Shown one piece after another: positions 2,516 to 29,466 of a stretch of DNA of 38,938 nucleotides. Both the position numbers and the translations under genes were made by a program. Within the stretch, counting starts at the first letter, position 1. Each line of letters opens with the position of its first letter. The notes beneath the pieces are model-generated. The model ran no database searches. It had not been told where the DNA came from and saw only the letters and a program-made list of their open reading frames with translations. The stretch lies in sequence record ON470620.1; one strand, 5' to 3'. The DNA comes from Escherichia phage vB_EcoM-813R9.

Positions 2516-3342
2516 GAAGATTCTTCTGGCTGGTCGCTGCCGCTCTGTTATTGGCAGGGTGTGCAGGCGAAAAAGGCATTGTCGAGAAAGAGGGATATCA
2601 GCTTGATACCCGACGCCAGGCGCAGGCGGCGTATCCGCGCATTAAAGTGCTGGTGATCCACTACACCGCAGATGATTTTGATAGCTCGCTGGCGACACTG
2701 ACCGATAAGCAGGTCAGCTCGCATTATCTGGTCCCTGCGGTACCACCGCGATACAACGGTAAACCGCGCATCTGGCAACTGGTGCCGGAACAAGAACTGG
2801 CCTGGCATGCGGGGATTAGCGCCTGGCGCGGGGCAACGCGCCTTAACGACACCTCTATTGGCATTGAGCTGGAAAACCGTGGCTGGCAAAAATCGGCCGG
2901 AGTGAAATATTTTGCCCCGTTTGAACCGGCACAGATTCAGGCGCTTATTCCACTGGCGAAAGATATTATTGCCCGTTATCACATCAAGCCGGAAAACGTA
3001 GTGGCACATGCGGATATCGCACCGCAGCGCAAAGACGATCCGGGGCCATTATTTCCCTGGCAGCAACTGGCGCAGCAGGGGATTGGTGCCTGGCCGGATG
3101 CGCAGCGGGTTAACTTTTACCTTGCCGGGCGCGCGCCGCACACACCGGTAGATACCGCGTCATTGCTGGAGCTTTTGGCGCGCTACGGTTATGACGTTAA
3201 ACCTGATATGACACCGCGCGAGCAGCGGCGCGTGATTATGGCATTCCAGATGCATTTCCGCCCGACGTTATATAACGGCGAAGCGGATGCAGAAACTCAG
3301 GCGATTGCCGAAGCATTGCTGGAGAAATACGGGCAGGATTAG
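2512..3342 (+). CDS. amiD: N-acetylmuramoyl-L-alanine amidase AmiD (lipoprotein)
   Basis: 276-aa ORF with lipobox LLAGC; start overlaps ybjQ stop (ATGA); conserved synteny. Confidence 0.9.
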
Positions 3343-4352
3343 CGCGGCAGTTTTCCGTGGTCGCGTAGCCAGGCGGCAGTTTTCTCGATACCTTCATCCA
3401 GGGTGATGACCGGCTGATAACCTAACTCTTCCTGCGCACGCGTAATATCCAGCGTAAAGTCAAAATTCAACTTGGAGACGCCGTAGTGGGTCAGCGGCGG
3501 CTCTTTTGCTGACTTGCGGCCTAAACGCTCCATGCTGCGGGCGATCATATCCAGCATCGGGTAGGGGACGGAACGAATACGACAGTCAATATTCAACTCG
3601 TCGATCAGCTTCTGCACGATGCTGCGCAGTGTGCGATGCTCGCCGTTGGTGATGTTGTACACACGCCCGGAAGGTAGCTTATCGCAGGCTTCCTGGCTTG
3701 CCAGCCACATTGCGTGCACGGCATTTTCATAGTAGGTCATATCGACCAGCGCACTGCCGCCATGCGGTAACAGAATACTGCCGTAGTGGTGCATCATATG
3801 CGCCAGACGGGGAATAAAGACTTTATCGTGCGGTCCGAACAGACTTTGTGGGCGCAGAATAGTAAAGCGCGTTTGTGGATTCGCCTGCGAAAGCATATTG
3901 ATCACTTCTTCGCTGGCTGCTTTGCTGCGGGCAAACTCGTTGGCGAAGCGGTGAGGGCGAAAATCTTCTTTAATATCGCGATGGTGGTGATAATCGAAGT
4001 ACAGGGAGGGGGAAGAGATATGAATAAAGTTACGCACACCCCAGGCGACAGCCCATTCACCCAGGCGGCGAGTGGCGCGAACGTTAGCCAGATCGAAAGC
4101 CTGTTGTGTCCCCCAGGGTGAGGTAAAGCTGGAGCAGTGCCACAGCGTATCAATGCCCGCGAGCATCACTTTAGCTTGTGATGAAACCAGCTCGGTCAGA
4201 TCCGCCGGAACAAACTCTGCGCCCATTTTTTCCAGCAATTTGCCCATTGCCTCGTTGCGACCGGTCGCTCGCACGCTGATGCCTTTCTGGCATAAAAACT
4301 CTACCGCGTTTCGACCTAAGCCGCTGGTGGCGCCGGTAACCAGTACCTTCAT
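3339..4352 (-). CDS. ybjS: NAD-dependent epimerase/dehydratase family protein YbjS
   Basis: ORF 3339..4415 trimmed to Met22 ([15 protein letters not shown], Rossmann GxxGxxG motif), giving 337 aa. Confidence 0.85.
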
Positions 4353-7764: not shown

Positions 7765-8110
7765 TCTCTGCTCCTGTTGATACGGAAAGGGACACAGGCA
7801 CACCGTTATTCCGCCGCCCGGTCAGCTCCACCACCATTGAACCGTCAAAATTGCTGTTAATAGTGATGGAATCCAGCGTCAGCCGTGGCTCCCAGCGACT
7901 CAGTGCCACATACACAGCCGACATGACCTGCAGGCGTAACGCCGGATTTTGTGGCTGGTCTATCAGTGCCGACAGCAGGGAACCATATTCCCGACGGGCA
8001 ATGCGGCTACCCTGCGGCGTCAGCAAAATGTCCCGCACCGACTGGCGCAGATGGTCAATATCAGTAATGGCTTTACCGCTGGTATTGTTCATCCCGCTAT
8101 AAAGCGTCAT
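7751..8110 (-). CDS. W: Baseplate wedge protein W (gp25-like)
   Basis: 119-aa ORF with P2 gpW-like motifs (GSRIARREYGSLL, IDQPQNPAL). Confidence 0.85.
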   Translation of the reverse strand: MTLYSGMNNTSGKAITDIDHLRQSVRDILLTPQGSRIARREYGSLLSALIDQPQNPALRLQVMSAVYVALSRWEPRLTLDSITINSNFDGSMVVELTGRRNNGVPVSLSVSTGAENGSD

Positions 8111-8685
8111 ACCGGGCCTCCGGTTGTGTCGCCGCCTTTCAGGACGCCAGTATGCTGATGTGCATCAACCACAATTCCGTTAGAACTCATTGCACCGCCG
8201 CCCTGGGTAACACCACCATTGATCACTACTTCGCTGTTAATGCGTGTGCGGTCAGCCTCCAGTACAAACTCACTGGTTTTCAGGGTGATGTTGTCGGCAG
8301 CTTCAATGACCATGGATTTGATTCCCCTGACATACCAGCGCCCGGTAGCGGGTTCGTATTCAAACCAGCCACCGTCAGGATGTTCTGTCACACAGGCGTC
8401 CACCGACGCCGACGGTGGTGCGAACTGATTCGAATATACAGCGGGCAGCGCAAAGGCGGTTTCCAGATTGCCGCCCAGACTCAGCAGCACCACCTGCTCA
8501 CCTTCCGATGGTCGCCACCATGTGCGGGCATTACCCGCGCGCAGCGTCAGCCAGTTAATCCAGTTGGTTTCAAGGTCGCCCGTTTTCACCCGACAAAGCC
8601 AGTGTTCCCGGTCCACTTCGGTGACTACACCAGTGCGGATCAGGTTGGTGATAAGGCGCATGATTTCGGTTAATTGTGCGTTCAT
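8107..8685 (-). CDS. V: Baseplate spike/hub protein V
   Basis: 192-aa ORF with P2 gpV-like motifs (WLTLRAGNARTWWRPSEGEQV, HQHTG...GGDTTGGP). Confidence 0.85.
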   Translation of the reverse strand: MNAQLTEIMRLITNLIRTGVVTEVDREHWLCRVKTGDLETNWINWLTLRAGNARTWWRPSEGEQVVLLSLGGNLETAFALPAVYSNQFAPPSASVDACVTEHPDGGWFEYEPATGRWYVRGIKSMVIEAADNITLKTSEFVLEADRTRINSEVVINGGVTQGGGAMSSNGIVVDAHQHTGVLKGGDTTGGPV

Positions 8686-8731
8686 AATTTAATCATGCCG
8701 AGATAAGATTGATAAAAAAACTCTTTAGTTT

Positions 8732-8749
8732 TGTGCCAGTTATGATACA
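8732..8749. promoter_or_regulatory. Candidate Ogr/Delta-type late-activator site (TGT-N12-ACA) of the V operon promoter
   Basis: tgtgccagttatgataca lies about 55 bp upstream of the V start codon; P2-type late promoters carry this dyad. Confidence 0.45.
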
Positions 8750-8785
8750 AAGTGCATTTACTCATGGACTAAATAAAGGATTCCT

Positions 8786-10045
8786 ATGTTTAGATTATCT
8801 AGTGTCAAGATTGAAGGTTTTTGGGGAAGACTAAATGCATCATGTTCATTTAATGAAGATGTAAATATTATTATTGGTCGAAATGGGACCGGTAAAACAA
8901 CCTTTATGAATATTCTTCACTCAGTTCTGGCATTAGAACTCGAATCACTAAATGAGAATAGTTTTGATAATGTAACAATAAAAATAAAAGAAGGAAGCAA
9001 AACTAAAACAATAAAAGTTGTGAGTAAATTTGACATAACTAAAGCTTTGCCTACGTTTGAATATACAATTTCTAGAAAGAAATATATTATCAGATCCTTT
9101 GAAGATCGTAGACTACCTATATATATGAGGAGAAAATATCAGGAAGACGTTGAAAAACTTAAGTTAGAGTTAGATAAATTAGTTGCTTTATCTTCTCTAT
9201 CAGTTTACCGACTTAGAAGCGGTGAAGATTTTGAAATCAGAGACAAATATGGCTCAAAATTAATCAACCCTGTTGATTACCGATTAGAACAATTATTGCA
9301 GAACCTAACAAAATATCAACTTTATTTATCACAAAGAGCTCGTGATGTTTCTGCAATATTACAGAAAGAGGTTCTTGCTTCTATTCTTTATAGTAAAGAA
9401 GATGGTATCGATGACACATTTAACTTTTCTTTTGATAAAGAAAAAGAACGTAGAAATTTAATAGCTGCATATTCTCAGCTTGGAGCTTTTGATAGTGATG
9501 TCAGAAAGAAGATTAACTTTCACGTTGAATCTATTGCCAAAACATTTGAAGAATTACGACTTGCAGAAAAAAATAACAGAAATATTTTAAATGTAGATTA
9601 CAGATCATTTGAGGCATTACGAAAGACGCAAAGAATTATAAAGATGTCTTTAAAATCCGAGGAGAAAATAAAAAACATATTTCTTCCTATAAATCTATTT
9701 TTAGAAACATTACATGAGTTCATAACCGATAAAAAATTTAATTTTATCTCCGGTGAGCTAGTAATAGAAAACGAGCATGGGCCGATTAGCCATAGTAATT
9801 TATCGTCTGGTGAAAAACAGCTATTAATTCTTTTTATTGAAACTTTGCTACAGCAAAACAAACCTTTCATCTATCTTACTGATGAACCAGAATTATCGCT
9901 ACATATTGCATGGCAACGAAAAATAATACCTGCAATCAAACAACTTAATCCTAATGCGCAAATTATCGCCGCTACGCATTCACCAGAAGTGGCTTCTAAA
10001 TATCGAAATGCAATCTTTGATATGGAGAAATTGGTTCATGGATGA
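8786..10045 (+). CDS. ariA: ABC/SMC-like ATPase (AAA15-type); candidate AriA of a PARIS-like defence module
   Basis: 419-aa ORF in AT-rich DNA; Walker A GRNGTGKTT, ABC signature LSSGEKQ, Walker B FIYLTDEPELSLH, H-loop ATHSPE; RBS aaagga. Confidence 0.6.
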   Translation: MFRLSSVKIEGFWGRLNASCSFNEDVNIIIGRNGTGKTTFMNILHSVLALELESLNENSFDNVTIKIKEGSKTKTIKVVSKFDITKALPTFEYTISRKKYIIRSFEDRRLPIYMRRKYQEDVEKLKLELDKLVALSSLSVYRLRSGEDFEIRDKYGSKLINPVDYRLEQLLQNLTKYQLYLSQRARDVSAILQKEVLASILYSKEDGIDDTFNFSFDKEKERRNLIAAYSQLGAFDSDVRKKINFHVESIAKTFEELRLAEKNNRNILNVDYRSFEALRKTQRIIKMSLKSEEKIKNIFLPINLFLETLHEFITDKKFNFISGELVIENEHGPISHSNLSSGEKQLLILFIETLLQQNKPFIYLTDEPELSLHIAWQRKIIPAIKQLNPNAQIIAATHSPEVASKYRNAIFDMEKLVHG

Positions 10046-10889
10046 TTTCCATTATTCTGCCGAAGCAGAAAATGTAATGAATTTATTTTACCAAGCTGAA
10101 GCCATGGTTTATGTTGAAGGCCCAGATGATATTTGCTTTTGGGAAATCATCTTTAATAAAGCTAGTTCATTAAAGGTTGAAATCAAAGATGTTGGCGGCT
10201 GTGAAGAATTAAAAAAATATATTGATAGAGTTACTGATGAAGATCTTCAAATTATAATTGCATGTGATGCAGACTTCACTACATTTGAAAATGAGGAAAA
10301 CGCTGATAGTCGCATTGTAAAAACTTATGGGCACTCCATCGAAAACACGTTTATTGACAAAACAGGCATATATAAGGCAATAAAAACTCTAGGAAAATTA
10401 CCTCAAAAGATAATGAACGATGTCAACGTCGATTCTTGGACAGAAGACTTTTATACCAAAATGGAACCCCTAATAAAACTTGATATATACAATCATATTT
10501 ATAGAAAAGGCATTTCAGTTATTGGTGACAGTGCAGATCGTTTCATGAAATCTAGAAAATCAAATGAAATTTGCGAGCAAAAAATCACGAGTTACAAAAA
10601 CACCATCATTGAAAAATTAGGTGTGGAACCAGATAACATCGATTCATCTTTCAAATCAAAATCGATAGAATACAGAAAGTGGCTTAGAGGTCATTTTCTT
10701 TTTTCTGCAGTACATAGGTACATTAGCACAACTGCAGAAAAAAATGGAAAAAAAGTATCCTTATCATATGAATCATTATATTCCAATTTAATGAATACAT
10801 TTGAATCCAATTTTACCAATACTCATATTGAGTTTAATCATTACCACGAAAAAATTAAAGCCATAAATATGCCACACGAAATGAAATAA
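10038..10889 (+). CDS. ariB: Toprim/DUF4435-like protein; candidate AriB effector of a PARIS-like module
   Basis: Start ATG overlaps the ariA stop (ATGGATGA); N-terminal VYVEGPDD with Glu27 and a downstream IIACDAD (DxD) motif as in Toprim/OLD-family nucleases; AT-rich. Confidence 0.55.
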   Translation: MDDFHYSAEAENVMNLFYQAEAMVYVEGPDDICFWEIIFNKASSLKVEIKDVGGCEELKKYIDRVTDEDLQIIIACDADFTTFENEENADSRIVKTYGHSIENTFIDKTGIYKAIKTLGKLPQKIMNDVNVDSWTEDFYTKMEPLIKLDIYNHIYRKGISVIGDSADRFMKSRKSNEICEQKITSYKNTIIEKLGVEPDNIDSSFKSKSIEYRKWLRGHFLFSAVHRYISTTAEKNGKKVSLSYESLYSNLMNTFESNFTNTHIEFNHYHEKIKAINMPHEMK

Positions 10890-10914
10890 GAAAAAATACA
10901 GATGTATTTTTATA

Positions 10915-11361
10915 TTATGTAGATAACCATTCAAATAGGGTATCCTTGATTTGATAATATTCTTTATCGTGGATACCCAATAGCTTACGCTCTGCGTAAC
11001 GGACCTCAGGTCCTTTGCGACTGACGCGATCACGCAGGCCGTAGTGATGAACGCGGGCAATGCGCTGCACCTTGCCTTCAAACTGCACGCTGGCAGAATC
11101 GGCGCTGGCGGCAGTTTTCAGGTATTTTGTGGTGCGCAGCTTCGCAAACATCTGACGTTTAATGCGGCCTTTTTTACTGCGTGCTGTTACCCGTCGCGGT
11201 TCATAGCTGCTGCCGTCAGGGTTGCGCTGCATCCTGATATTCTGCTGCTGTGTCCGGCGAAGTTCCTGCGCCAGTTGGCGCATCATACGGCTTCTTGCGG
11301 CTGGCTCCAGATTCGCCAGCAAGGCACTCAGCCAGTCGTCCACCTTCTGCAATTCAGCCAC
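10915..11361 (-). CDS. S: Tail completion protein S
   Basis: 148-aa ORF at the P2 gene S position after R; apparent GTG start; last ~25 codons lie in AT-rich DNA. Confidence 0.7.
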   Translation of the reverse strand: MAELQKVDDWLSALLANLEPAARSRMMRQLAQELRRTQQQNIRMQRNPDGSSYEPRRVTARSKKGRIKRQMFAKLRTTKYLKTAASADSASVQFEGKVQRIARVHHYGLRDRVSRKGPEVRYAERKLLGIHDKEYYQIKDTLFEWLST

Positions 11362-19713: not shown

Positions 19714-20865
19714 TCAGCTTATTTGACCTAATAATTCTTCCGCATATTTTTTATCACTATCCATCCGTTGCTGAACAGCATCCCTAAGATGCTCTTTCAA
19801 CTTATCAGGATAATTTTTACATGCATCAATCAATTTTGTTCGTAAAAGCTTAGCACCATTTACAATGGTGGCATAAGCTAAAGCATCAGCTAACTCCTTA
19901 ACTTTCACATCATCAGTAATGATAGAAGGGATTGAAAAAACGTAATATTTCGCAACATAATTTTGCGTATACCAACTATCATATAACAATCCAATTAAAG
20001 CATCACCAAGATCACCTCTTCTTTTAAATTTGCTACCAAATGTATTACCCCATGTTCCTATAGCTCCTTTGGTCGCATCAGAATAGAAATCCAAATATCC
20101 TTTTTTGCACTCTTCGATGATTATATTTTCCATTCTAATTAAAACATCATCAGGAAGATTTCTCCATGCGCTCGGCTTAATTATTCTAAATACATTAGCA
20201 AACTCAACATTATTGCTAGCCTTGCGTAACTCATCACCTAGCAACCGCATTGCGGCTTTTTCTTCCTCTCCTGAAAAGCGTTGGTTTATTGCTTTGAATA
20301 TAGAATCAATTTCCTTGGTTGGCCTTTCATTAAAGCGAGAAATTAAACTTTGGAAAAAATCTAGTAGTTTTTTTTCTGGAATTTGTGATATTAAAGCTTC
20401 TGCATAATCAGAATTATTTACAAAGTGAACCTCATAAATTCTTTCAAGAATTGCTGTGTAATCGAACTCAGCAACATCTCTTTTTAAATACTTAATAAAA
20501 GTATCCAACATGATCAATATTCTCATGCAGGAATCTTCTGTATCAGGGAAATTGTCATGTGTCCTTGGATTTCTTATACACTGATAGTAGCCTCTTAATA
20601 GTGCTTCAAATCCGCGCTGTTCGTCCTGCTCTGATACAGATTGAAGACTATTAATTTGGATTCTAGGTGATTGTCCACCCAAAACAGTACCAACAAGCTG
20701 AGCCCCATCCCCTTCACATTGCCCTTTTTCACGCAGCAAAGTTGTTAGATATTTGGTTCCTGCAAGTATTGCATCCGAAAATTGGTTGTTTTCCAGCCTA
20801 TTACCAATCGCTTCAACTAATTCCGCATCGAAATTATTTGTATTAAAGTTATTTTTTACAAACAT
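19714..20865 (-). CDS. Accessory protein with N-terminal HEPN-like domain (TIGR02391/Hypoth_Ymh-type, Rx4H) and large uncharacterised C-terminal domain; candidate abortive-infection/defence effector
   Basis: 383 aa from the ATG after an aggggag RBS (ORF-track start is GTG at 20868); motif IRNPRTHD = R98-x4-H103 preceded by ..QRGFEALLRG..; AT-rich; occupies the Q-to-A accessory slot (old/tin position in P2). Confidence 0.6.
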   Translation of the reverse strand: MFVKNNFNTNNFDAELVEAIGNRLENNQFSDAILAGTKYLTTLLREKGQCEGDGAQLVGTVLGGQSPRIQINSLQSVSEQDEQRGFEALLRGYYQCIRNPRTHDNFPDTEDSCMRILIMLDTFIKYLKRDVAEFDYTAILERIYEVHFVNNSDYAEALISQIPEKKLLDFFQSLISRFNERPTKEIDSIFKAINQRFSGEEEKAAMRLLGDELRKASNNVEFANVFRIIKPSAWRNLPDDVLIRMENIIIEECKKGYLDFYSDATKGAIGTWGNTFGSKFKRRGDLGDALIGLLYDSWYTQNYVAKYYVFSIPSIITDDVKVKELADALAYATIVNGAKLLRTKLIDACKNYPDKLKEHLRDAVQQRMDSDKKYAEELLGQIS

Positions 20866-27789: not shown

Positions 27790-29466
27790 ATGAATTCATT
27801 TGCCATCGTTATACTCTTATTAGCATTTCTCGCCCCTGTTCTAGCTGTAATATTATTTAAACAAAGTAAAAAACACAAAGCGGCTATAGATAACCTGACA
27901 GCTAACAACATAGCCCTTTCTAACCAACTGATTGAAAATCAAGAAAAACTAGCACAGACCGTACGAGAATTATCAGAGCTTGAAGGGCGAGCAGCACCAT
28001 TGTGGCAATACGAAGAATTGCACAGCGCAGTAATGGATGCAGAGAATAAGATAAAAAATGCGGACTCAATAGCCAAGCAAAAAATAGATGAAGCCCAAAT
28101 TAAGGCGGCTAAAACAGTAAACGAAGCAAATTATCAAGCTCAGATGACAATAAGCAACGCTAATAGCGAAGCTATAGCAATCACCAAAGACGCTCGCGAT
28201 GCACGCCTGAAAGCCAAAGAACGTCTTGATAATGCTAATAATAAAGCAAATGAGCTAATCTCAAATGCTAATGACAATGCAGTAAAAATTATTTCTGATG
28301 CAGAAGAAAGAGCAAAGGAGATTGCTGGTTCAGCATATGAAGCTAAAGAGTTTGCAGAAAAATATGAAGCAGTTGCAAAATCAATGAAAAATAAAATTGA
28401 AGGTTATGGTGATGAATGGATCATCCCTAACCGTAGTGTACTTGATGAGCTGGCAGAAAATTATGAATTTACAGATGCAGGCAAGGAATTACAAAAAGCC
28501 AGAGAGTTAACCAAATCATTAATAAAAACTAATAAAGCTGCTTCGTGTGATTATGTTGAGCAAAACAGGCGTAATACTGCCATAAACTTTGTTTTGGATG
28601 CCTTCAATGGAAGAGTTGACAGTATTTTATCAAAAGTCAAACACAACAATTTTGGAAAACTTTCCCAAGAAATAAAAGATGCATTTCAACTAGTAAATTA
28701 CAATGGCTCTGCCTTTAGGTCCGCAAAAATAAGTGACATCTATCTTCAGGCAAGACTCAACGAGCTAAAATGGGGTGTAGCAGTTAATGAAATTATGCTC
28801 GAAGAAAAAGAAGAGCAAAGAAGGATTAAAGAACAGCTTCGTGAAGAGGAAAGAGCTCGTAGAGAATATGAAAAAGCGATAAAAGAAGCTGAAAAAGAAG
28901 AAAAAGCTATTCAGCAAGCTATAAATAAAGCAACGAAAGAACTTATGCTTGCAAATGAAGAACAACGCTTAGCTTTAGAGCAAAAAATAGCTGAACTACA
29001 GTTAAAATATGAAGAAGCTGAAGCTAAAAATCAACGAGCTATTTCTATGGCTCAACAAACCAGATCAGGCCACGTCTATATCATTAGTAATATTGGTTCA
29101 TTTGGCGAAGATGTATATAAAATTGGAATGACACGCCGCCTTGAACCACTTGATCGTGTTCGTGAACTCGGAGATGCTAGTGTTCCTTTTTCGTTCGATG
29201 TTCATGCGATGATTTATAGTGATGATGCACCATCATTAGAAAACCATCTGCATAAAGTTTTCAACGAAAAGCAGGTCAATAAAATTAACTCACGAAAAGA
29301 GTTTTTTAACGTAAATTTAAAAGAAATCAAATCAGTTATTGAAGACATGAACATCAACGCCCACTGGACAATGTTTGCAGAGGCGAAAGAATATAGAGAG
29401 TCTCTATCTATTGAGCAGGAGCGCAAAGCAGCCACTTCCGCCAACGATGAACTACATGTTGCTTAG
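27790..29466 (+). CDS. Membrane-anchored coiled-coil protein with C-terminal GIY-YIG-like (T5orf172/MUG113-type) domain; candidate defence/superinfection-exclusion cargo
   Basis: 558 aa; N-terminal TM helix FAIVILLLAFLAPVLAVILF; long Ala/Lys/Glu-rich coiled-coil; C-terminal GHVYIISN..VYKIGMTRR..PFSF..ENHLH..REFF; AT-rich; RBS aaagga right after the cI stop. Confidence 0.65.
   Translation: MNSFAIVILLLAFLAPVLAVILFKQSKKHKAAIDNLTANNIALSNQLIENQEKLAQTVRELSELEGRAAPLWQYEELHSAVMDAENKIKNADSIAKQKIDEAQIKAAKTVNEANYQAQMTISNANSEAIAITKDARDARLKAKERLDNANNKANELISNANDNAVKIISDAEERAKEIAGSAYEAKEFAEKYEAVAKSMKNKIEGYGDEWIIPNRSVLDELAENYEFTDAGKELQKARELTKSLIKTNKAASCDYVEQNRRNTAINFVLDAFNGRVDSILSKVKHNNFGKLSQEIKDAFQLVNYNGSAFRSAKISDIYLQARLNELKWGVAVNEIMLEEKEEQRRIKEQLREEERARREYEKAIKEAEKEEKAIQQAINKATKELMLANEEQRLALEQKIAELQLKYEEAEAKNQRAISMAQQTRSGHVYIISNIGSFGEDVYKIGMTRRLEPLDRVRELGDASVPFSFDVHAMIYSDDAPSLENHLHKVFNEKQVNKINSRKEFFNVNLKEIKSVIEDMNINAHWTMFAEAKEYRESLSIEQERKAATSANDELHVA

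Follow-up and report, generated by a model that had tools for sequence, protein, structure and literature searches.

The tail completion gene S and the baseplate spike gene V of the P2/186-like Escherichia coli prophage sequenced as Escherichia phage vB_EcoM-813R9 (sequence record ON470620.1) are separated by a two-gene cassette, which is assigned here to the PARIS family of ATPase–nuclease defence systems. The window analysed is the whole stretch of 38,938 nucleotides (nt), and all positions refer to it. The S–V interval comprises 2,229 base pairs (bp; 8686–10914) between the V boundary at 8685 and the end of S at 10915. An identical copy of the prophage is present in E. coli EC11, between ybjL and rcdA. 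The late genes of the prophage lie on the minus strand. The conserved left flank is V (8107–8685, minus strand), the first gene of the P_V late operon, an open reading frame (ORF) of 192 residues whose product shares 96% identity with the P2 gpV-like protein encoded by Klebsiella phage 4LV2017 and is named 'phage baseplate assembly protein V' in RefSeq. The right flank is S (10915–11361, minus strand; a 148-residue ORF), the last gene of the P_O late operon; its counterpart in 4LV2017 is P2 gpS-like, and S of a homologous Cronobacter locus matches the Pfam family Phage_tail_S.

Both cassette genes are on the plus strand, opposite to the late operons on either side, as the preliminary description of this DNA had noted. 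Gene 1 (8786–10045) encodes a protein of 419 residues, the presumed sensor and scaffold, and gene 2 (10038–10889, ATG at 10038) a protein of 283 residues, the presumed nuclease effector. Gene 2 begins 8 bp before gene 1 ends (ATGGATGA, 10038–10045, plus strand), and through this overlap the two genes are translationally coupled. A Shine–Dalgarno-like AAAGGA (8775–8780, plus strand), read from the sequence, lies 5 nt before the ATG of gene 1. RefSeq gives the same two gene starts in the identical E. coli prophage, with product names that go no further than 'AAA family ATPase' and 'DUF4435 domain-containing protein', and the start of gene 2 at 10038 agrees with the N-termini of 33 aligned homologues. 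The high AT content described earlier was also evident, with a fractional G+C content (GC) of 0.30–0.33 across 9001–11000 compared with 0.55–0.60 on either side (∼31% for the block and ∼56% for the flanks). No helicase gene is present within the 2.2-kb insert.

Gene 1 encodes an AriA-like ABC/SMC-type ATPase. The complete ABC-ATPase motif set that had been reported for it was located as described, with Walker A at G31–T39 (GRNGTGKTT), the signature at residues 339–345 (LSSGEKQ), Walker B residues D366 and E367 in FIYLTDEPE and H398 of the H-loop in ATHSPE. Lys37 of Walker A, D366/E367, H398 and the whole of LSSGEKQ are invariant in 36 homologues, as are most of the other motif residues. Relatives of about 420 residues number in the thousands, the best-scoring of which are 52–83% identical. 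The profile search suggested in the preliminary description returned AAA_21 (82.3 bits) and AAA_15 (64.6 bits) from Pfam, together with SMC_N, and the best PADLOC match is AriA (5.7e-40). A sequence search of the PDB gave the AriA chains of the PARIS structures 8ux9/8v45 as the best matches (E value 6e-17). The AlphaFold2 (AF2) model, built with 36 homologues in the alignment, has a mean predicted local distance difference test score (pLDDT) of 80. When this model was compared with the PDB using Foldseek, the best 14 matches were all AriA chains (E values 6e-19 to 3e-16, template-modelling (TM) scores 0.56–0.65); retron PtuA came next at 5e-13, so that AriA leads by about six orders of magnitude.

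Gene 2 encodes an AriB-like DUF4435/TOPRIM protein. It matches Pfam DUF4435 with 91.3 bits (E value 1.1e-25) over profile positions 4–234 of 238, and its best PADLOC match is AriB (2.3e-24). The Pfam scores of the two proteins are two to three times the gathering cut-offs, and these domain matches are therefore not chance ones; NCBIfam holds no specific model for either protein. The acidic motif around Glu27 and the IIACDAD motif, both of which had been pointed out previously, are present, and E27, D31, D77, D79, E102 and N103 are invariant in 34 homologues. The first five correspond to E26, D30, D88, E90 and E122 of AriB from PARIS B185, which are the metal-binding residues of its TOPRIM domain (PMC11464382); the fourth acidic position (D79) is thus Asp where canonical AriB has Glu. 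The AF2 model (pLDDT 91.4) finds AriB as its best PDB match (8ux9_A and 8v46_D; E value 1e-5, probability 1.0, TM score ∼0.5, 16% identity); C-terminal regions of OLD nucleases, which contain the TOPRIM domain, rank next. An hhalign comparison of a 34-homologue profile of gene 2 with a canonical-type AriB from IMG/VR (L072) gave 89% probability and an E value of 2e-6 over the TOPRIM half, with E27 aligned to E25, D30–D31 to D28–D29, CDAD to CDRE and GHSIEN to GHSIEN. The link to AriB is seen only through the Pfam and PADLOC profiles, this hhalign comparison and the comparison of folds. A word-based search recovered only 51 clusters of gene 2 homologues.

The cassette occurs in 18 of 5,426 complete E. 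coli genomes, at 99.8–100% identity, and was absent from both the phage collection and the plasmid collection that were searched. Close relatives that match both flanks at 95–97%, namely Klebsiella phage 4LV2017, Escherichia phage 500465-1 and many Klebsiella prophage records, have an empty S–V junction of 68–74 bp. The preliminary description had named the presence of the same two genes as a conserved core part of all P2-like genomes as fatal to its proposal; the pair is not such a core part. Because of the difference in GC (0.31 versus 0.56), the empty junctions in close relatives and the occurrence in 18 of 5,426 genomes, we conclude that the cassette is acquired cargo and not a core P2 gene pair. 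At the S–V site, diverged alleles of the pair with the orientation seen here occur in [Erwinia] mediterraneensis, a Klebsiella metagenome-assembled genome, Cronobacter sakazakii and another E. coli. One more allele is adjacent to cI in a P2-like prophage of Yersinia, and yet another is in a Shewanella chromosome. Every intact pair examined, including those of Cronobacter, Yersinia and Shewanella, retains the 8 bp gene overlap. The two genes move as a unit, which recurs in other prophage hotspots and at a chromosomal locus.

The detection rule for PARIS (Rousset et al., 2022; PMC9122126) requires adjacent genes matching AAA_15 with at least 32 bits or AAA_21 with at least 27 bits and DUF4435 with at least 27 bits. 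The cassette passes this rule with the scores given above, and AriA and AriB rank first in PADLOC, ahead of PtuA, MADS3 and MADS4. The folds of both proteins, as single-chain models, are closer to solved AriA and AriB than to any other solved protein (TM scores 0.5–0.65), and the earlier suggestion of a PARIS-like ATPase plus Toprim/DUF4435 module is borne out. Among the OLD-like systems, which combine an ABC-ATPase with TOPRIM, PARIS constitutes class 4, and the cassette is assigned to this class; that the pair is a PARIS-family member acting as a defence module we hold to be likely, with good confidence. In common with PARIS B185, a gene for an ABC ATPase (AAA_15/AAA_21) is followed by an adjacent gene for a DUF4435/TOPRIM protein, the proteins share the ATPase motifs, the TOPRIM acidic cluster and the GHSIEN motif, and both systems occupy hotspots of mobile elements that belong to the P2/P4 group. 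The settings differ in that B185 PARIS resides in a P4-like satellite, adjoining cos, and the cassette in a helper-type P2-like phage at S–V. The cassette proteins are also shorter (419 versus 464 residues for the ATPase and 283 versus ∼306 for the nuclease), and the 8 bp overlap of their genes is a further difference from B185.

Other systems that combine such domains were compared with the cassette. [quoted passage not shown] Gabija and class 1 Old were rejected on these grounds, since the ATPase and TOPRIM domains are in separate ORFs here and no UvrD-like GajB is present. Septu and the retron PtuA–PtuB pair possess a related AAA_15/21 ATPase, which is the second-best structural and PADLOC match for gene 1. 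The Septu partner is the HNH nuclease PtuB, whereas gene 2 is a DUF4435/TOPRIM protein in which the Pfam and PADLOC scans gave no HNH match, and Septu was likewise rejected.

Several observations weigh against placing the cassette in the PARIS family. The match to solved AriA and AriB reaches TM scores of only about 0.5–0.6, and in structural alignments with the B185 structures (8UX9 and 8V45–8V49) the cassette proteins are 16–20% identical. AriB was not found when gene 2 was compared with PDB sequences either by phmmer or with the 34-sequence profile. The second TOPRIM motif reads D-A-D in gene 2 instead of the D-x-E of B185 AriB. Residues R28 and R31 of B185 AriB, which form salt bridges to AriA (PMC11464382), are replaced by P29 and I32 in gene 2, the canonical-type AriB from IMG/VR having K27 and R30; these two residues are a mechanistic detail of B185 PARIS that lies outside the detection rule. 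A scan of the 100 bp preceding gene 1 (8686–8785) revealed no convincing sigma-70 promoter on the plus strand, and promoter-like sites in the region were fewer than expected from shuffled sequence. Finally, ABC ATPases are paired with TOPRIM nucleases not only in PARIS but also in AbiL and MADS3–4, which allows for another mode of action.

AbiL and MADS3–4 share with PARIS a tree of AAA15/21 ATPases paired with TOPRIM nucleases (PMC11464382), and gene 1 also matches PADLOC mad3 (5.5e-21) and NCBIfam MADS3 (6e-9). The cassette could accordingly represent a different OLD-like lineage, AbiL-like or MADS3/MADS4-like, in which an ATPase–nuclease complex would cut invading DNA directly without release of a transfer RNA (tRNA) nuclease, and the altered AriA–AriB interface residues would fit such a lineage. 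This is unlikely, as the AriA and AriB models are far ahead (5.7e-40 versus 5.5e-21 for mad3, and 2.3e-24 versus an E value of 0.034 for mad4, the weak match of gene 2) and both folds match AriA and AriB best. AbiL was rejected because no AbiL model is among the PADLOC matches for gene 2. MADS was rejected on its NCBIfam MADS3 score (35.5 bits against a cut-off of 420) and the mad4 value; MADS systems are, moreover, multi-gene and methylation-associated, and no such genes are present in the neighbourhood of the cassette. The missing promoter, in turn, is what might be expected of an inactive remnant or an otherwise non-defensive passenger. We regard this as extremely improbable given that both ORFs are intact, that every catalytic residue is conserved across homologues of 28–83% identity and that all intact pairs examined preserve the overlap of the two genes, in addition to the near-identity of the cassette in 18 genomes.

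PARIS is characterized by an AriA hexamer that sequesters AriB monomers and frees them when a trigger binds, by activation through phage anti-restriction proteins, Ocr among them, and by the cutting of tRNA-Lys. If the cassette operates as B185 PARIS does (PMC11464382), the gene 1 ATPase would oligomerize in the lysogen and keep the gene 2 nuclease inactive. On infection, a protein of the incoming phage would bind the ATPase and, in an ATP-dependent manner, cause release of the nuclease, which would then dimerize and cut host tRNA or another RNA, so that translation would stop and the infection would be aborted. For this detailed sequester-and-release mechanism with tRNA cleavage the balance is about even, because the interface residues are altered. 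Since the clade is very distant from B185 PARIS, its trigger, its RNA target and the detailed ATPase–nuclease interface probably differ from those of that system. Alternatively, the cassette could serve mainly in prophage addiction or stabilization, with the nuclease as a toxin held by the ATPase as antitoxin, and it may act on P4-type satellites or rival P2-like phages instead of on unrelated lytic phages. AriA is called an 'antitoxin' by the PDB depositors, a HigBA toxin–antitoxin pair occupies S–V in another prophage and a P2 hotspot system can act against P2 itself (Rousset et al., 2022; PMC9122126). Such a role is nevertheless decidedly improbable: PARIS is documented as a trigger-activated defence (PMC9122126; PMC11464382), the same pair occurs outside prophages in the Shewanella chromosome, and the sequence holds nothing that separates addiction from ordinary abortive-infection defence.

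The position of the cassette is that of P2 orf30, a known variable site. The preliminary description had placed S–V outside the classically described cargo positions of P2, which proved to be mistaken: P2-like phages have three places that commonly contain horizontally acquired genes, the orf30, TO (old/tin) and Z (Z/fun) regions (PMC3091744, citing Nilsson and Haggard-Ljungquist, 2007; PMC6823313), and orf30 lies exactly at S–V. As at P2 orf30, AT-rich foreign DNA whose content varies among relatives is found between S and V, here between the S stop and the P_V promoter and V. P2 itself carries only a 261-bp ORF of unknown function at this position, whereas the present interval contains a recognizable two-gene defence system. 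The further suggestion that S–V might be an additional hotspot holds in part, in that many defence genes reside there and the hotspot papers considered here do not single it out, although the site as such is the classical orf30. The analysis of Rousset et al. (2022) concerns A–Q (PMC9122126), Vassallo et al. (2022) add Z/fun (PMC9519451), Egorov et al. (2024) add a site near cI (bioRxiv 10.1101/2024.10.15.618418), and a 2026 survey (PMC13586616) uses only GpQ–L, integrase and primase as markers and pools everything 'downstream of GpL'; S–V is not singled out as a defence hotspot in any of these four. Surveys confined to A–Q and Z/fun miss the S–V cargo.

Occupancy of the site was assessed in two samples. 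From 63 Enterobacterales loci with a V homologue, 46 had both S and V; the junction was empty (74–82 bp) in 17 of these and occupied in 29. The 1,055 E. coli genomes that carry this V/S lineage were sampled evenly, which gave 59 informative rows, 34 empty and 25 occupied by AT-rich cargo. The cargo in the 29 occupied Enterobacterales loci measures 576–3,816 bp, has a GC of 0.32–0.44 (0.47–0.63 in the flanks) and nearly always runs opposite to the late genes. Cargo recorded at S–V includes Septu in three other prophages (PtuA 1e-139 and PtuB 1e-72), an EcoRII restriction–modification pair, a SIR2 protein, FRG, DUF2971 plus DUF5677 and HEPN/ApeA-like proteins, HigBA, GmrSD, an endonuclease/exonuclease/phosphatase-family protein, P-loop ATPases, DUF6216 membrane proteins and several proteins without matches. 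The occupants thus comprise known defence systems, candidate defence families and many uncharacterized genes. Their company at the site counts in favour of a defence role for the cassette, as does the PD-Lambda-1 match in another hotspot of the prophage. With about 40–60% of loci occupied, this survey shows that the orf30 site is a well-populated defence hotspot across Enterobacterales.

Among E. coli genomes, the cargo met most often at S–V is a DUF6216 membrane protein (about 250 residues), which is also present in the P2-like element of BL21 (NZ_CP053601, H80). Large AT-rich genes encoding proteins of 330–594 residues without a Pfam match, and mostly without a PADLOC match, were seen at positions 2511–4022 of L002 (Klebsiella phage Kp4865-2) and at L013, L036, L040 and L043; they include a P-loop protein of 503 residues and a protein of 594 residues with only a weak ApeA-like match. 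They are candidate defence genes, and the uncharacterized S–V proteins of 400–600 residues are reasonable candidates for new ones.

The late genes of P2 form four Ogr-dependent operons with a TGT-N12-ACA element, among them ONMLKRS (P_O), which S closes, and VWJIHG (P_V), which V opens (PMC3931495). The corresponding dyad in the window (TGTGCCAGTTATGATACA, 8732–8749) matches the Ogr-dependent late promoter consensus and is the predicted P_V. It lies between V and the cargo, which places the cargo upstream of P_V, after one transcription unit has ended and before the promoter of the following one. The dyad starts 63–66 nt before the V start codon in 48 of 58 loci, with cargo or with none, and the sequence around it is not conserved across the 58 loci. 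To judge from this layout, cargo at the P_O/P_V boundary would break no late transcription unit, which would explain the tolerance of the site. A −10-like TATGAT inside the dyad was considered as a means by which Ogr might shut off the cassette and was rejected, since TGATACA belongs to the extended dyad in many loci. The centre of the dyad is about 55 nt from the V start codon, on its upstream side, and no obvious Shine–Dalgarno sequence precedes V in the 58 loci. The dyad of P2 late promoters is centred near −55 of the transcription start; were this to apply here, the V messenger RNA would be leaderless or nearly so.

Gene 2 and S converge, and a short inverted repeat between their stops (AAAAATAC-AGAT-GTATTTTT, 10892–10911) contains A/T pairs only. 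It folds at −4.1 to −5.1 kcal/mol (z = −1.6 on the plus strand and −3.3 on the minus strand), has no G–C pairs and was missed by the terminator scan; it is a weak candidate for a two-way terminator, and this function is not claimed for it.

The exchanged segment extends beyond 10914. In alignment with the empty-site phage 4LV2017 and with Kp4865-2, similarity is lost at the 3′ end of S and is regained only at about 10975–10987, some 60–70 bp inside S, which indicates that the last 20–24 codons of S travel with the cargo. This AT-rich, non-homologous 3′ end of S (10915–10986, minus strand) is therefore counted as part of the exchanged block. The C-terminal tails of S vary by cargo type, and about the last 18 residues are rewritten in the cargo-bearing prophages (the window and loci L002, L010, L012, L026, L060 and L067, among others). 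In the window the tail reads ...GIHDKEYYQIKDTLFEWLST, compared with ...GVNDEVE.TRDTLLRWLAG at empty sites. Exchange of cargo thus alters the C-terminus of a structural protein.

The cassette represents a distant clade of known PARIS and is nothing categorically new; the site is likewise known, and its role as a defence hotspot has been under-described. Five cognate pairs (loci L030, L064, L067, L069 and L071) show ATPase/nuclease identities of 79/64, 74/54, 64/44, 64/42 and 48/37%. In every pair the AriB-like nuclease is less conserved than the AriA-like ATPase, by 11–22 percentage points, the reverse of what would be expected if the sensor evolved fastest. The different interface, the D-x-D TOPRIM motif and a nuclease that evolves much faster than the ATPase raise the possibility, which we put forward tentatively and consider doubtful, that the clade is a mechanistically distinct branch of PARIS and that P2-like phages have in S–V a genuine defence hotspot, their third or fourth. 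Such a branch would imply a trigger and an RNA target different from those of B185 PARIS, and what drives its diversification could be the target or counter-defence, such as tRNAs encoded by phages or inhibitors of the nuclease. A hotspot of this kind would exchange its cassettes by recombination that rewrites the C-terminus of S and keeps the Ogr-dependent P_V intact. The identification of the cassette is itself routine for tools of the DefenseFinder/PADLOC type. As a compact natural PARIS variant that is far from the one structurally studied system, it should be useful for comparing the requirements of the AriA–AriB interface, trigger recognition and tRNA specificity.

Side observations concern three other loci of the same prophage. 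Between the CI repressor and integrase genes, AT-rich DNA at 27790–29466 (plus strand) encodes a 558-residue DUF4041 plus T5orf172/MUG113 protein that matches PADLOC PD-Lambda-1 at 3e-120, a second defence gene in a second hotspot. The AT-rich A–Q (old/tin) hotspot carries, at 19714–20865 (minus strand), a 383-residue Hypoth_Ymh/TIGR02391 protein; its partial PADLOC matches are PD-Lambda-3_B (2e-14) and a HEPN model associated with Argonaute, and it is possibly a third defence cargo. At Z/fun, between the tail fibre and tail sheath genes, a recombinase (invertase) gene (3044–3610, minus strand) is accompanied by partial tail-fibre and fibre-assembly genes, which suggests an invertible host-range switch rather than defence cargo.

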